The notes under the pieces are model-generated. The model did no database searches. It was given only the letters and a program-made list of their open reading frames with translations, and had not been told where the DNA came from. This document shows positions 1 through 54,998 of a stretch of 55,436 nt of DNA, piece after piece. Position 1 is the first letter of the stretch. Every line of letters starts with the position of its first letter. The DNA is taken from the IMG/VR virus record IMGVR_UViG_3300033153_012477, positions 1 to 55,436 of that record; one strand, 5' to 3'. Both the position numbers and the translations under genes were made by a program. This DNA comes from a virus (taxonomy: Duplodnaviria; Heunggongvirae; Uroviricota; Caudoviricetes).

Positions 1-31
1 ATTTACTTAATATCTTTTTCTTCTGTTTCAT
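1..31 (-). CDS. Partial CDS (MKQKKKILSK...) running off the left edge
   Basis: ATG at 31 preceded by AGGA; open to the window edge. Confidence 0.4.
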   Translation of the reverse strand, partial: MKQKKKILSK

Positions 32-107
32 AAAAATTCCTGTGTAAAAATTAAAGTTAAACTAAAATTACAAACTAAGAACTTTCATAACAAACCTCTT
101 TTTATAT

Positions 108-193
108 TGGTGGGGATGGAGAGATTCGAACTCTCAAGCCAAACTAGGCACTGGTTTCTAAAACCAGCGTGTATACCATTCCACCACATCCCC
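108..193 (-). tRNA. tRNA-Leu(TAG)
   Basis: GGGGATG acceptor, CTGGT-TTTAGAA-ACCAG anticodon arm, long variable arm, GTTCGAATC, encoded CCA. Confidence 0.95.
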
Positions 194-198
194 AATTA

Positions 199-1392
199 TT
201 AACCTTTTAAAGTAGCAATAGGTCTTAGTTTATACTTAATAGAAACCAAATCTCTTTGTTCTTCCATAACAGTATCAATATTTTTATAAGCACCTGTTGC
301 TTCATCTAAATCTTTTTCAGTTCTAATGCTATGGATGATACCAAGATCTTCCATATGCTTTATTTCTTGGGCTAGGTCTAACTCTCTTTGAGCAGCTTTA
401 CGACCTAGTTTTCTACCCGCTCCATGAGAACAGGACATAAAGGAATCTCTATTACCTAAACCTTCTACAATATAAGAAGGTGTTCCTGGAGATCCAGGGA
501 TAATACCTAACTCTCCTGCAAAAGCTTTAGTAGCTCCTTTTCGATGAACATAAACATTCTTACCATAGTGTCTCTCTAAAGACGCATAGTTGTGATGTAT
601 ATTTATCATGTCATCATTACCAAACTTATCAAAAGAGACAGCTTTATCCTCATACTTAAGCATGCAGTTTTTCACCACTTCCATAGTCTCATACATCATC
701 TTCTGTCTGTTTTTAAAAGCAAAGTCTGTAGCATAAGTCATATCTTCAAAATAAGCTAAACCTTCCATAGTATCCATAGATAAAAAAGCTAACTCTTGCT
801 TATCGTCTACAGAAGAAAAATAAAGCTTATTTATCTCTCTAGCAATCTTGTTGTAATGATCGCATATCGACATACCAAATTTTCTACTCCCTGAATGAAG
901 CATAATCCATAAATTATTTTCTTCATCCCTTTGAAATTCCAAAAAATGATTTCCCGAACCTAAAGTTCCTAACTGATAACGAGCAGGATTTATAAGTGTC
1001 TTCAAAAAATCTGAGTGAGGAAGGTTTGGCATAGCTTCTTCTGCACAAGGATTTTTGTGATTTTTACCTACACCCATAGGAACAACTCTACGAGTAACCC
1101 CCATTATTTTTTTAAGAGTATCTTTAGGTATCTCATCCTTAAAAGATGTCTTCACAGCAGTCATACCACAACCTATATCAACTCCAACAGCATTAGGTAT
1201 AACGTAGTTATCACAAGCTATAACGCCTCCTATAGGCATACCATAACCTTGATGTACGTCGGGCATTAGAGCAACATGACCATGTATAAAAGGTAAAGCT
1301 GCTAAGTTTTTAGCTTGCTCTATAGCTCCTTCTTCTGGGTTATCACACCAACACTTAATTACTTTTTTTCCATCTTCTTTAAAATATTTCAT
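199..1392 (-). CDS. rtcB: RtcB RNA ligase (2',3'-cyclic phosphate/5'-OH), embedded in the tRNA operon
   Basis: MPDVHQGYGMPIGG, VGVDIGCG, GTLGSGNHF, HSGSR, HHNYA, HRKGAT, SHGAGR motifs. Confidence 0.96.
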   Translation of the reverse strand: MKYFKEDGKKVIKCWCDNPEEGAIEQAKNLAALPFIHGHVALMPDVHQGYGMPIGGVIACDNYVIPNAVGVDIGCGMTAVKTSFKDEIPKDTLKKIMGVTRRVVPMGVGKNHKNPCAEEAMPNLPHSDFLKTLINPARYQLGTLGSGNHFLEFQRDEENNLWIMLHSGSRKFGMSICDHYNKIAREINKLYFSSVDDKQELAFLSMDTMEGLAYFEDMTYATDFAFKNRQKMMYETMEVVKNCMLKYEDKAVSFDKFGNDDMINIHHNYASLERHYGKNVYVHRKGATKAFAGELGIIPGSPGTPSYIVEGLGNRDSFMSCSHGAGRKLGRKAAQRELDLAQEIKHMEDLGIIHSIRTEKDLDEATGAYKNIDTVMEEQRDLVSIKYKLRPIATLKG

Positions 1393-2115: not shown

Positions 2116-2131
2116 TCAATTTTCATACCCC

Positions 2132-2166
2132 AAAACGCAAAAAGCCCCAAAATTAATTTGGGGCTT
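2132..2166 (-). terminator. Intrinsic terminator (candidate attenuator) between the leader ORF and the first tRNA
   Basis: AAGCCCCAAA-N5-TTTGGGGCTT stem followed by a T-rich tail (TTTTTGCGTTTT). Confidence 0.8.
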
Positions 2167-2201
2167 CTATATTTGTTTAGTTAAATTTTAAGGTATTAGT
2201 A

Positions 2202-2279
2202 CTAAACAAACCTCCCCGACACAACTGTATTCAGTTGTTGACTTAAATTTAAATGGAGATTGCTCAATACTTTTTTCAT
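2202..2279 (-). CDS. Leader peptide MKKVLSNLHLNLSQQLNTVVSGRFV (25 aa)
   Basis: GAGGA RBS; codons 5-17 are all L/S/N/H/Q, matching the downstream tRNAs. Confidence 0.8.
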   Translation of the reverse strand: MKKVLSNLHLNLSQQLNTVVSGRFV

Positions 2280-2298
2280 TAATATTTCCTCTTGATAC

Positions 2299-2327
2299 AT
2301 ACTACCGCTATATTAGCAGATTATCAA
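2299..2327 (-). promoter_or_regulatory. Sigma70-like promoter of tRNA/rtcB operon
   Basis: TTGATA-17-TAGTAT. Confidence 0.7.
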
Positions 2328-4113: not shown

Positions 4114-4548
4114 CTAAGCTTTACTTGGTATTTCCACTATCTCTTCAGCTTCTTCAACTGTATCAAAGATTTTAATGTCTCTAGGAATACCTTCCCAGAT
4201 ACCGTGCTTTGTGCAGTAAGCGTGAGCTACTAACCTAGCATCCTTTTCTAGTAGGACATTAAATGTCACAGAAGAATTAGCTTTCTTACCTTGACCCCCG
4301 TTTGCTCCTGCAAAATAAGTCATCTCAGCTAACTTCGTCTCTTTGTTATAAAGAGAAATAGTGCTGATGTAGTGATCTAGATCATCTGGGTGAGTATACT
4401 TATCTCCCACTTGAACAGTTACCTTAAAAGGTACTCCCTTAACTGCTTTTCCCTTACAGTTAACAAATGGGGAATGACGATCAATTAGATCTTTCTTGGC
4501 TTCTCTTTCAACTTCATCGATGTTTTCATACTTGTGAATCTTAGGCAT
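4114..4548 (-). CDS. Superoxide reductase-like (desulfoferrodoxin/class II SORL) protein
   Basis: HSP, HPDDLDHYI and HAYCTKHGIW metal-ligand motifs. Confidence 0.8.
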   Translation of the reverse strand: MPKIHKYENIDEVEREAKKDLIDRHSPFVNCKGKAVKGVPFKVTVQVGDKYTHPDDLDHYISTISLYNKETKLAEMTYFAGANGGQGKKANSSVTFNVLLEKDARLVAHAYCTKHGIWEGIPRDIKIFDTVEEAEEIVEIPSKA

Positions 4549-4791
4549 GCACCTTCTCCTTGTATTTAATGCTCATAAAATATTTAGTGTACACAGAATA
4601 AAAAAGGCAGCTCACACCCTCCATGTTATGAAGACTATAGAGTGCTGCTACCGAACTAAAAGTAAGCGGTGTTGCTTACTAAAAGTCTAACTGTCCTCTA
4701 CCTGAGACCATACATCTAATACCAACACCTGCTAGAGAGTGGGCACATCAGGTCCTCTAAAACAGAATTAGCATATAGCTAACCCCAAAGT

Positions 4792-5070
4792 CTACTCACA
4801 AATTAAACGATATTTTTTGCAGTCCATATAGCTACTGACATAGAAACTAGAGCCAATCATTCGGACGCTTGTACGTACACCTGACATAACAGAATCAAAA
4901 CAACCCATACTAGAAGTACCTGCGTAGTCTAACTGTAAATAACATCTAGAGGCTACATAAGCGGGTAGGTCTAAAAACTGTTGTTCTAAGGTAGTGACTC
5001 TTTCTTCAAGAGTTTGCTCTTGTGCAAAACAAGCACCTGAGAGCATTAGAAATAAGATAAGTGTTTTCAT
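4792..5070 (-). CDS. Secreted hypothetical protein
   Basis: Signal peptide MKTLILFLMLSGACFA; GGAG RBS. Confidence 0.7.
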   Translation of the reverse strand: MKTLILFLMLSGACFAQEQTLEERVTTLEQQFLDLPAYVASRCYLQLDYAGTSSMGCFDSVMSGVRTSVRMIGSSFYVSSYMDCKKYRLICE

Positions 5071-5112
5071 AAAATCTCCAAAATCCTTTTCGGACATAAA
5101 TTCGACTTAAAT

Positions 5113-5580
5113 TGGTGGAGCTGGGGGTAATCGAAACCCCGTCCGAAAGCTCTTCTTAGTCCTGATCTACGTGTGTAGTCTATTTCAACCTATAGACAGG
5201 CTGTGAGTTTTGGTTGTAGGTACACTGCCCGTATCACAACTTTATTTTGAGTCGCAGCTACCATTCGACTTGGGGGTGCTGTGACCTAAACCATAGCACC
5301 CTCCACCACTTACTTTTGAGAAAAGCAAGAAAACATGGGGAAAGTGTTATAACGCCCCTCCCACGTCTGCGGTCCTTCTCCTGTTTCTTGGCTAGGACAG
5401 CCTCATGGACTCAAAGCTATTAAGCTGCTAACCTTAGGCTAGGTGCTCTTTTCGCTCTGAATGCGTCCAAAGAAACTACATTTTCGTCAGTTACTTTTGT
5501 TTGAGTCTTTTAAAGAGTCCCGACTCACCTCTACACGCACAAAACTCGTCTGCTGCCCCCGTCGAAACCAGTGCAGCCCC
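5113..5580 (-). ncRNA. ssrA: tmRNA; tag (A)DENVVSLDAFRAKRAPSLRLAA at 5420-5488
   Basis: 5' GGGGCTGCACTGGTTTCGAC, 3' CAGCTCCACCA with G3.U70, T arm GGGGT-TTCGATT-ACCCC, tag ORF after AAAAGTAACT ending LAA-TAA-TAG. Confidence 0.95.
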
Positions 5581-5734
5581 ACAAAATTTTATAAATACAT
5601 CGTAGTCTATATAAGTCTAAAAAGTCAAAATATTTTTTTAAAAACTGGACCATAGGACTGACGTACTTATCATACGCTTACAAGCACCTGTCTAGCAGTG
5701 ACCCTACGTCTTACCCAGTAAAAAACAACCTATA

Positions 5735-5947
5735 TTAATCGATTATTCCTTTTTTATGCTCAACTATATCAAAAGCTTCTACAGTGTCTTTACCCATATC
5801 AAGAAGCTCTGCATAACGCACTCTCTTCCTACGACCCCAATTTCCCATAATAGGAGCACTCTCTACAGGAATAGGCTTGATCTTATCTTCACCATAAAGT
5901 TTCTTCATCTCTTCTTCAATACCGATATGTCCATTATCGATGTTCAT
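5735..5947 (-). CDS. Hypothetical protein
   Basis: AGGAG RBS, tight packing. Confidence 0.7.
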   Translation of the reverse strand: MNIDNGHIGIEEEMKKLYGEDKIKPIPVESAPIMGNWGRRKRVRYAELLDMGKDTVEAFDIVEHKKGIID

Positions 5948-5955
5948 AAACTCTC

Positions 5956-6390
5956 CTAGTTGTTTGTTCTCTCATGAGGATTTTTAAAAGTAATTACTCT
6001 AAATTTACCTTCGTATGTTATATAAGCTGGTAACTTAAGATTCTCTTTATCAAAAATAAGATGAGCACCGTCCCTGTGGGGAAGATCTAATCTATCAGCA
6101 TACTCTTTACTCACCCGAGTACTGCTTAAAGGTATAAAATCAATATGCTTCATCATATGCCTAATTACTAGCCCATAGTCCGCATAAGCATTGTAGTCGT
6201 CTACCCTATATCTAATCTCCATACGAGGGATGGGGAGATCCAGGTTCTCTTCTTCTGATAGCTGCCTGATCTGTCTCCAGTGCCAATCGTCACTATAAGA
6301 TTGATCTTCAAGCTTTTGTTCTAGTTTATTAATTTTATATTCTGCTTCGTTTAATGAATCGTGAAGTCTTTCTTCTAGTGTCATAGTCAT
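5956..6390 (-). CDS. Hypothetical protein
   Basis: ORF overlapping its neighbour by 4 nt. Confidence 0.75.
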   Translation of the reverse strand: MTMTLEERLHDSLNEAEYKINKLEQKLEDQSYSDDWHWRQIRQLSEEENLDLPIPRMEIRYRVDDYNAYADYGLVIRHMMKHIDFIPLSSTRVSKEYADRLDLPHRDGAHLIFDKENLKLPAYITYEGKFRVITFKNPHERTNN

Positions 6391-6581
6391 AATTTAACCC
6401 TCACCTTTTTTTCACAATTAGGGCACACAATGTAGTTGTAATAATCTTTATCACCAAGGTAATCAGAAGTGTAATCTTCTTTAACCTCTATAGGAACATA
6501 GGAAAGGGTAACCCCGCACTTATGACAGATATCTTCTTTTATGACTGACTTGTGCGGTTCTTTATTAACGATATGTACCAT
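6387..6581 (-). CDS. Small zinc-ribbon protein
   Basis: CHKC...CPNC. Confidence 0.75.
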   Translation of the reverse strand: MVHIVNKEPHKSVIKEDICHKCGVTLSYVPIEVKEDYTSDYLGDKDYYNYIVCPNCEKKVRVKL

Positions 6582-6582
6582 A

Positions 6583-6819
6583 TCAACTCCTTATAAACTT
6601 GATAGACTGAGGGGGATTTAAACAAGAATCACACACGTCGTCGGCTGTCTCGATATACCAGATCCTAGTAAGATTATCTCGACCCACTTCTCTAGTACAC
6701 CAAGAACAGTTATCTTCTTTTAGAGATAAGTGAAAATGTATAAAGAATTCTTTAATCTTCTTTAGGAAAGATATAAAAAACATTATAGTCTCCATTATCG
6801 CCAGAGGTATATCCATCAA
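6583..6819 (-). CDS. Small Cys-containing hypothetical protein (start uncertain)
   Basis: CSWC...CDSC; overlaps the upstream ORF. Confidence 0.55.
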   Translation of the reverse strand: MMDIPLAIMETIMFFISFLKKIKEFFIHFHLSLKEDNCSWCTREVGRDNLTRIWYIETADDVCDSCLNPPQSIKFIRS

Positions 6820-12323: not shown

Positions 12324-12386
12324 TTATCCCCTGTAGGGGATATAGATCGGATAGAAAGGAATGTAGATTGTCATAAATTTTTTCAT
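12324..12386 (-). CDS. Leader peptide MKKFMTIYIPFYPIYIPYRG (20 aa)
   Basis: AGGA RBS; 11 of 12 core residues are I/Y/P, matching the downstream tRNA-Pro, -Tyr and -Ile. Confidence 0.8.
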   Translation of the reverse strand: MKKFMTIYIPFYPIYIPYRG

Positions 12387-12408
12387 AATAATTCCTACTT
12401 AGTACCCT

Positions 12409-12437
12409 ATATTAATGGAATATTAAAATTAAGTCAA
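12409..12437 (-). promoter_or_regulatory. Sigma70-like promoter of Pro/Tyr/Ile tRNA operon
   Basis: TTGACT-17-TAATAT. Confidence 0.7.
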
Positions 12438-28654: not shown

Positions 28655-28793
28655 TGGTGGAGAGGGCAAGGATTTGAACCTGCGACACCCTGGTTTACCA
28701 CGAAGTATGTCTAATCTACGCCACGCTTTTAACAGCGGGTTCAAACGATAAGACTCTTTTCTCCAGGTGCTCTACCAACTGAGCTACCTCTCC
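28655..28793 (-). ncRNA. CCA-ended tRNA-like RNA carrying the Y RNA (Ro-binding) helix in place of the anticodon loop
   Basis: GGAGAGG/CCTCTCC-A-CCA, D and T arms, CCTGG/CCAGG stem enclosing 69 nt with ATCGTTTGAACC then GTGGCGTAGA. Confidence 0.8.
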
Positions 28794-54922: not shown

Positions 54923-54998
54923 GCTCCTATAGCTCAGTTGGCAGAGCAGCATTTTCTAAAAATGTTTGTCGCCAGTTCGACCCTGGCTAGGAGCACCA
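54923..54998 (+). tRNA. Amber suppressor tRNA, anticodon CTA
   Basis: 76-nt cloverleaf; GCATT-TTCTAAA-AATGT places CTA at 34-36 (54956-54958); CCA end. Confidence 0.88.

Follow-up and report, generated by a model that had tools for sequence, protein, structure and literature searches.

The DNA analysed here, a window of 55,436 nucleotides, comprises the first 55 kb of a single 192.7-kb contig (35.7% G+C) from a large uncultured phage, whose genome encodes RecA, UvrD, GroEL, thioredoxin and a tmRNA in addition to scattered tRNA genes. Near one end of the window, the minus strand carries, in this order, a sigma-70-like promoter, a Shine-Dalgarno site, a 25-codon open reading frame (ORF) and an intrinsic terminator, followed by an operon of tRNA genes and rtcB (108-2115) that is putatively controlled by these upstream elements. 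The tRNA genes were identified using ARAGORN and Rfam, and rtcB was identified using Pfam (RtcB, E 1.5e-108). Two tRNA-Gln(TTG) genes (2115-2040 and 2030-1956) come first, the foremost of them 24 nt beyond the end of the terminator; these are followed by a Cys-rich ORF of 86 amino acids (1923-1663), by the genes for tRNA-Asn(GTT) (1672-1595), tRNA-His(GTG) (1588-1513) and tRNA-Ser(GCT) (1503-1416), by rtcB (1392-199) and by the gene for tRNA-Leu(TAG) (193-108), all on the minus strand. A preliminary description, prepared without database searches, had given the downstream genes as Gln-Gln-Asn-His-Ser-rtcB-Leu; this order held, and the 86-aa ORF between the Gln and Asn genes, previously unannotated, is now added to it.

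The 86-aa ORF is conserved and basic and terminates in a stop codon overlapping the tRNA-Asn gene at its 5′ end. It has 13 metagenomic homologs, which are always found in such a tRNA context where the surrounding DNA can be seen, and a 94%-identical copy (P0124) is located on a 31-kb contig; a Pfam search assigned it to no family. Directly after tRNA-Leu(TAG) lies a mini-ORF of six codons, MKVLSL, whose ribosome-binding site is strong (68-88, minus strand). Other RNA genes in the window include the phage-encoded tmRNA (5113-5580, minus strand; Rfam RF00023, 127.5 bits) and a tRNA-like gene whose anticodon region is interrupted by an insertion of 62 nt (28655-28793, minus strand; Rfam tRNA, 45 bits; ARAGORN with the intron option), which is followed by a second tRNA-like stretch just past a thioredoxin-like ORF. 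A suppressor-type tRNA with the anticodon CTA is also present (54923-54998, plus strand), despite the use of TAG as an ordinary stop codon in this genome. The presence of this tRNA prompted consideration of TAG recoding, which was rejected: coding is already dense under code 11, and TAG terminates 47 of the 206 long ORFs.

The promoter (2299-2327, minus strand) consists of TTGATA (2327-2322) and TAGTAT (2304-2299) separated by a 17-nt spacer, with 9 of 12 positions matching in a consensus scan, and transcription is predicted to start at approximately 2292 on the minus strand. A Shine-Dalgarno site, AAGAGGA (2287-2293), was read from the sequence 7 nt before the ATG at 2279, from which the leader ORF (2202-2279, minus strand) extends through 25 codons to a TAG (2204-2202) and reads MKKVLSNLHLNLSQQLNTVVSGRFV. 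An alternative 32-codon ORF beginning at an ATG at 2300 was rejected, because this ATG overlaps the -10 box and should therefore fall outside the transcript. Codons 5-17 (2229-2267) form the putative regulatory run, which consists exclusively of Leu (five codons), Asn (three), Ser (two), Gln (two) and His (one), i.e., the residues carried by the tRNAs encoded downstream. The codons previously listed for this run were confirmed exactly, as were the observations that both Ser codons are AGY, the type read by the encoded tRNA-Ser(GCT), and that both Gln codons are CAA. No tRNA in the assembly reads the Leu codons TTG, TTA and TTA, which make up three of the five; tRNA-Leu(TAA) was seen downstream only in related loci. 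When all 3,029 ORFs in the whole 192.7-kb genome with a length of 12-45 codons were ranked, together with all 8,970 open segments of its six frames, this run of 13 was the longest composed of L/S/N/H/Q, the next best being 11 among the small ORFs and 12 among all segments. Fourteen of the 24 post-start codons of the leader belong to this set, as compared with a genome background of 25.6% (p = 7e-4).

A second leader in the same genome shows the same relationship with a different set of residues. Leader 2 (12324-12437, minus strand) has a promoter (TTGACT-17-TAATAT) and an ORF reading MKKFMTIYIPFYPIYIPYRG, is located directly upstream of genes for tRNA-Pro(TGG), tRNA-Tyr(GTA) and tRNA-Ile(GAT), and represents the genome-wide maximum for I/Y/P, with 11 such residues in a 12-residue window (next best among small ORFs, 8). 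Neither leader contains any residue of the other's set; thus, the two most extreme ORFs for two residue sets each directly precede the matching tRNA genes, and leaders 1 and 2 constitute an internal replicate. A hairpin covers the last codons and the stop codon of leader 2, whereas a canonical terminator was found neither in its fold nor in a terminator scan, and an exact-match search of IMG/VR with leader 2 gave no match.

Comparison of the region with 50,697 phage records by megablast and blastn returned no match, and a related-locus search of IMG/VR with RtcB, the upstream 317-aa protein and an alignment of the 86-aa ORF returned no relatives. Relatives were reached first by protein searches with RtcB and the 86-aa ORF, and then by an exact pattern search with an invariant 18-mer, GGGGAGGTTTGTTTAGTA. 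Two of the relatives found by protein search, L009 and L010, include the upstream region and a homologous leader; the 18-mer, which is common to these two loci and the window, recovered L015, L021, L022, L023 and L024. Since L015 encodes the same leader peptide as L010, seven distinct loci were compared, namely the window and six metagenomic homologs. Further matches to the 18-mer (L012-L014, L016-L020, L025 and three in genome contigs) contained neither tRNAs nor a leader and were treated as chance occurrences. Six loci possessing rtcB without this tRNA context (L001-L005 and L008) were set aside, and the closer RtcB relatives L006 and L007 are truncated before the leader, L006 starting inside what appears to be the 3′ arm of the terminator.

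The gene order of the operon is also found in L006, L009, L010 and L021, and L024 has the same tRNA order without rtcB. Several peculiarities were observed in these relatives: L009 contains, between the genes for tRNA-Asn and tRNA-His, a 150-aa fragment of a class II (His-type) synthetase core (4531-4983, minus strand), and also a mini-ORF, MKVAC, at the position equivalent to the MKVLSL mini-ORF of the window; the RtcB of L010 comprises 731 amino acids (4535-6730, minus strand), approximately twice the usual length; and in L024 the tRNA-Leu gene is followed by an ORF (2-535, minus strand) with a weak, sub-threshold match to RNA_ligase.

The relatives also bear on the earlier prediction that a tRNA-Leu(TAA) lies further along the operon, past the left edge of the window. 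This gene was not found in the assembly, where the contig ends 107 nt after tRNA-Leu(TAG) without a terminal repeat. It is supported by synteny with three relatives: in L006, tRNA-Leu(TAA) follows tRNA-Leu(TAG) after 13 nt; in L009, tRNA-Leu(TAG) is followed by a 94-aa ORF and then by two tRNA-Leu(TAA) genes; and in L010, tRNA-Leu(TAA) follows rtcB. The last bases of the window, with the mini-ORF and then ATGAAACAGAAGAAAAAG, align with the beginning of the 94-aa ORF that precedes tRNA-Leu(TAA) in L009; the match to that ORF covers the final 40 nt, in which an ORF begins at position 32. The TTR Leu codons of the run match a tRNA-Leu(TAA) found downstream in relatives, and by analogy with these loci the gene probably lies just beyond the contig edge.

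The seven loci all retain the -35 and -10 boxes, at the same distance from each other, and the AGGA core before the ATG. The leader frame is open in all seven, spans 25-27 codons and ends at the same TAG, and the +1 frame contains 3-5 stops in each; the run has a single indel, an inserted Ser codon (AGC, 3 nt) in L021. Across the loci, codons 5-17 show the states S6N, L12Q, L12N, Q14L, L16H, N17Q, N17S and the inserted Ser. All eight of these replacement or insertion states remain within L/S/N/H/Q (p ~2e-5 to 6e-5), most of them needing two base changes, as compared with four of the 10 replacement states in the flanking codons (Fisher p = 0.011). In three loci, Leu and Gln have exchanged positions (LSQ to QSL), such that the composition is kept and the sequence is not, and the Ser codons of the run are always AGY. 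These patterns of conservation make it probable that the leader ORF is read and that its amino-acid composition is what is kept, an inference that rests on sequence alone. The seven loci represent one ancestor and one tRNA set; they show that the match has been maintained, and not that it has originated independently.

The fold of the full leader RNA is strongly non-random (z = -5.0 versus dinucleotide shuffles), and in all seven loci the minimum-energy fold contains a long helix, designated P1, and the terminator. In P1, the putative anti-antiterminator, region 1 (2255-2271, codons 3-9) is the 5′ strand and forms 17 bp as 2271-2255 with the stop-codon segment 2215-2198 (GGAGG-TTGTTTAGTACT). 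Pairs were counted by script across the seven sequences: the 15 core pairs of P1 contain no mispair, with six positions varying on one side only. P1 encloses an inner hairpin, ACAACTG/CAGTTGT (2221-2238, codons 15-20), found in the folds of the window and the relatives, in which two pairs are changed on both sides in L010 (U-A to A-U and G-C to C-G). The terminator (2140-2168), detected by a terminator scan, has arms at 2168-2157 and 2151-2140, a TTAAT loop and a T-run at 2143-2139, and its 12-bp stem with five G-C pairs has a predicted stability of -16.6 kcal/mol. It is present in all seven loci, and several of its stem positions are changed on both sides in a compensatory manner.

Region 2, the switch segment GGGGAGGTTTGTTTAGTACT (2198-2217), contains the TAG of the leader and has two possible partners: region 1, or region 3 together with the CCCC of the terminator. 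Region 3, ACTAAACAAAT (2171-2181), is the 3′ strand of the 2:3 helix, which comprises 11 bp with 2211-2201; within this helix, the hairpin TTTGTTTAGT/ACTAAACAAA (2210-2201 with 2181-2172) spans the stop codon. The first 18 nt of region 2 are invariant in the seven loci despite divergent flanks and are composed of rare codons (NNG at codon 21, then GGG and AGG). Region 2 must pair with two partners and also encode the tail of the peptide and the stop, which fits its complete invariance. Region 3 is likewise conserved, with a preceding loop that varies in length and sequence; its three substitutions are all one-sided and all retain pairing as G-U. Region 3 and the terminator are present in all seven loci, and the tRNA-Gln gene begins 4-30 nt past the terminator, a distance too short to accommodate a further promoter for the tRNA genes.

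The part common to the two structures is the CCCC of the terminator (2163-2160). Until the 3′ arm of the terminator has been made, the GGGG-to-CCCC segment of every locus has as its minimum-energy fold the 2:3 helix closed by GGGG:CCCC, with energies of -12.7 to -14.3 kcal/mol, of which the four G-C pairs contribute -5.6 to -8.7 kcal/mol. The first two G residues of the GGGG are unpaired in P1 yet invariant, and one of the two occupies the wobble position of codon 21, where it is kept via the rare codons TCG, TTG and CTG in a genome where only 14% of third positions are G. This invariance points to selection for the GGGG:CCCC contact. The preliminary description had recognized the inner, stop-codon and terminator hairpins, all of which held; it had also proposed by eye that GGGG extends the second stem onto CCCC, and in every locus the isolated segment includes this extension when folded at minimum energy. 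It had missed P1.

One further pairing was noted: the loop between regions 2 and 3 (TACCTTAAAA, 2186-2195) can pair with TTTTGGGGTA (2126-2135, minus strand), just past the terminator. In a readthrough transcript, this outer helix would surround region 3 and the terminator; it appears in the folds of the window, L009 and L023, less clearly in L021, and might conceivably represent a processing structure.

All parts are in the order of a classical attenuator, and with P1 included the classical 1:2 / 2:3 / 3:4 scheme is complete, its switching being inferred and not shown. The locus is thus most readily interpreted as a ribosome-mediated (leader-peptide) transcription attenuator that gates the phage tRNA/RtcB operon. 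What the sequences show is the anatomy, the correspondence between the residues of the leader and the encoded tRNAs, the conservation, and the existence of alternative pairings. Translation of the leader, ribosome stalling, termination and the readthrough switch are all inferred in the absence of expression or 3′-end data, which limits confidence in the mechanism, probable as it appears. Four criteria for membership in this class are satisfied: a short ORF with a ribosome-binding site lies in a 5′ leader transcribed from the operon's own promoter; the ORF is enriched in codons cognate to the downstream tRNAs (Gln, Asn, His, Ser and Leu); a Rho-independent terminator lies between the leader ORF and the first structural gene; and the geometry of the ribosome is compatible with switching. 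For the last of these, a ribosome was assumed to cover ~12 nt on the trailing side of the decoding site and 12-15 nt on the leading side, and its placement by coordinates indicates that stalls at codons 5-13 would cover 2271-2255 and leave 2217-2198 free, and that the stop codon falls inside region 2. Stalls at codons 14-17 are ambiguous, in that they would expose region 1 and partly cover the GGGG.

According to this model, host RNA polymerase would start at the promoter (2327-2299), and a ribosome would then translate the 25-codon leader. When codons 5-17 are read quickly, the ribosome would reach the TAG and cover region 2, the terminator (2168-2140) would fold and transcription would stop before the first tRNA gene; when the leader is not translated, region 1 would pair with region 2 in P1, and the terminator would again fold. 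When charged tRNAs for the codons of the run are scarce, the stalled ribosome would cover region 1 and free region 2, which would pair with region 3, while the GGGG would pair with the CCCC of the terminator. The polymerase would then continue into the genes for the two Gln tRNAs, the 86-aa ORF, the Asn, His and Ser tRNAs, rtcB where present, and tRNA-Leu. Because the operon supplies the same tRNAs whose availability the leader would test, the circuit would constitute a negative feedback on decoding capacity, in which the tRNA set and the RNA-repair ligase are made on demand.

The weakest element of this scheme is the antiterminator. Folding did reveal the competing structure that the attenuator reading calls for, but its overlap with the terminator is only 4 nt (four G-C pairs), and equilibrium energies favour termination. 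When region 1 is masked in a transcript that includes the complete terminator, the window and four of the six relatives still fold at equilibrium into the 2:3 helix plus the terminator, a state favoured by 2-7 kcal/mol. Only L010 and L022, in which the antiterminator pairing reaches beyond the four G-C pairs, clearly favour the antiterminated fold at several stall positions, and L021 does so at two. The switch would have to be kinetic; the barrier from the antiterminated to the terminated fold is estimated at only 4.7-8 kcal/mol, and nearest-neighbour energies do not establish a clean kinetic trap. No covariation was found in the seven loci for the 2:3 or GGGG:CCCC pairs, because region 2 and the CCCC never vary and the only changes are one-sided and compatible with wobble pairing. 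Overall, the attenuator reading put forward in the preliminary description is supported, in that every element at the sequence level holds and is conserved in six other loci, with termination and readthrough remaining inferred.

Three other explanations were considered. The one that survives best is that the leader does sense the decoding speed of the matched codons and that the output is not a switch between the 2:3 helix and the terminator: a stalled or absent ribosome might instead alter Rho access, RNase processing of the precursor or transcript stability, with the terminator acting as a constant partial stop. In its favour, a role in sensing is required to account for the conserved match in composition, but the antiterminator is energetically weak, and in the same genome leader 2 has a matched ORF without a detectable canonical terminator. 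Against it, region 3 and the wobble position within GGGG are conserved without another evident role, the stop codon lies exactly inside the switch segment in all seven loci, and the terminator is strong and conserved via compensatory changes. We regard this explanation as unlikely.

Much less plausible is the possibility that the unit from promoter to terminator is a self-contained small gene, specifying an sRNA of ~150 nt or a functional 25-aa peptide, with the tRNAs expressed by leaky readthrough and the codon match a by-product. Such a unit would be consistent with the presence of its own promoter and terminator, and there is precedent in Sinorhizobium for trans functions of a terminated attenuator RNA, rnTrpL, and of a leader peptide, peTrpL (PMC6614838, PMC7968998). 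However, a functional peptide would be expected to keep its sequence and not merely its composition, whereas here residues swap positions and are replaced only within the tRNA set; in addition, the two top ORFs of the genome for two residue sets each precede the matching tRNAs, and no other promoter is available for the tRNAs. That RNA structure alone matters (a 5′ hairpin plus terminator acting, for example, in precursor processing) and the ORF is fortuitous agrees with the non-random, conserved fold, but is very improbable given that the Shine-Dalgarno site and ATG are conserved, that a sole frame is open to the same stop in all seven loci with an in-run indel of 3 nt, and that substitutions respect the residue set even in codons 10-14, which are unpaired in the fold.

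The leader-peptide attenuator therefore remains the preferred reading, and it bears on the function of phage tRNA genes, which are usually viewed as a compensation for codon usage or as a means of replacing host tRNAs that defence nucleases have destroyed, the control of their expression being largely unknown. If the reading is correct, a leader written in the codons of the downstream tRNAs would give the phage a direct, self-correcting read-out of its decoding capacity, and attenuation, a textbook mechanism of amino-acid operons, would extend to genes that supply tRNAs and an RNA-repair ligase. Since sequence alone suffices to recognize the design, it could assist the annotation of tRNA operons in uncultured phages and the prediction of the codons that limit a phage in its host. 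A bolder and more speculative possibility is that the attenuator serves as the sensor through which the phage counters a loss of host tRNAs. In that case, the cutting or depletion of host Asn, His, Gln, Ser and Leu tRNAs during infection, for example by host anticodon nucleases, would stall translation of the leader, and the stalls would switch on both replacement tRNAs and an RtcB ligase able to reseal cut tRNAs; the second leader would handle Tyr, Ile and Pro alike. If true, this arrangement would detect damage through translation and connect its detection with both the replacement and the repair of tRNAs.

The full-text literature searched yielded no account of tRNA genes, whether of phages or of other origin, being controlled by a leader peptide. 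At gathering thresholds, no Rfam family matched the phage leader, including the models for the His, Phe, Thr, Leu and Trp leaders and the T-box; the best sub-threshold scores, in bits relative to threshold, were 19.4/55 for Phe_leader, 17.4/49 for His_leader and 12.8/55 for Thr_leader (E 0.45-5.5).

The classical enterobacterial attenuators are trpL, hisL, pheL, leuL, thrL and the multivalent leader of ilvGMEDA. The phage leader resembles them in its short ORF rich in regulatory codons, in its predicted helices 1:2, 2:3 and 3:4, the mutual exclusion of which is inferred, in the intrinsic terminator before the first structural gene and in the predicted blocking of region 2 by a ribosome at the stop codon, and it resembles the thr and ilv leaders in being multivalent. 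Unlike them, it is encoded by a phage, would sense five amino acids at once and would control tRNA genes and an RNA ligase in place of biosynthetic enzymes, such that the tRNA product would feed back directly on the sensor; furthermore, its stop codon lies inside region 2, and its antiterminator and terminator overlap by only 4 nt. An overlap of similar size is known from the trp leader of Bacillus subtilis, in which the antiterminator and terminator are mutually exclusive through only about four shared nucleotides; there, however, the switch is set by the TRAP protein and not by a translating ribosome. T-box riboswitches likewise bring about antitermination in response to tRNA charging and act on translation-related genes, but they bind the uncharged tRNA directly, without a ribosome or an ORF. 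The pheM leader of Escherichia coli pheST, which encodes phenylalanyl-tRNA synthetase, is also a leader-peptide attenuator acting on a component of the decoding apparatus and not on amino-acid synthesis. It is cellular, senses a single amino acid and controls a synthetase, whereas the phage leader would control the tRNA genes themselves. The locus described here thus probably works in the manner of a multivalent leader-peptide attenuator, its switching being inferred, and would add a new class of controlled genes to those governed by such leaders.
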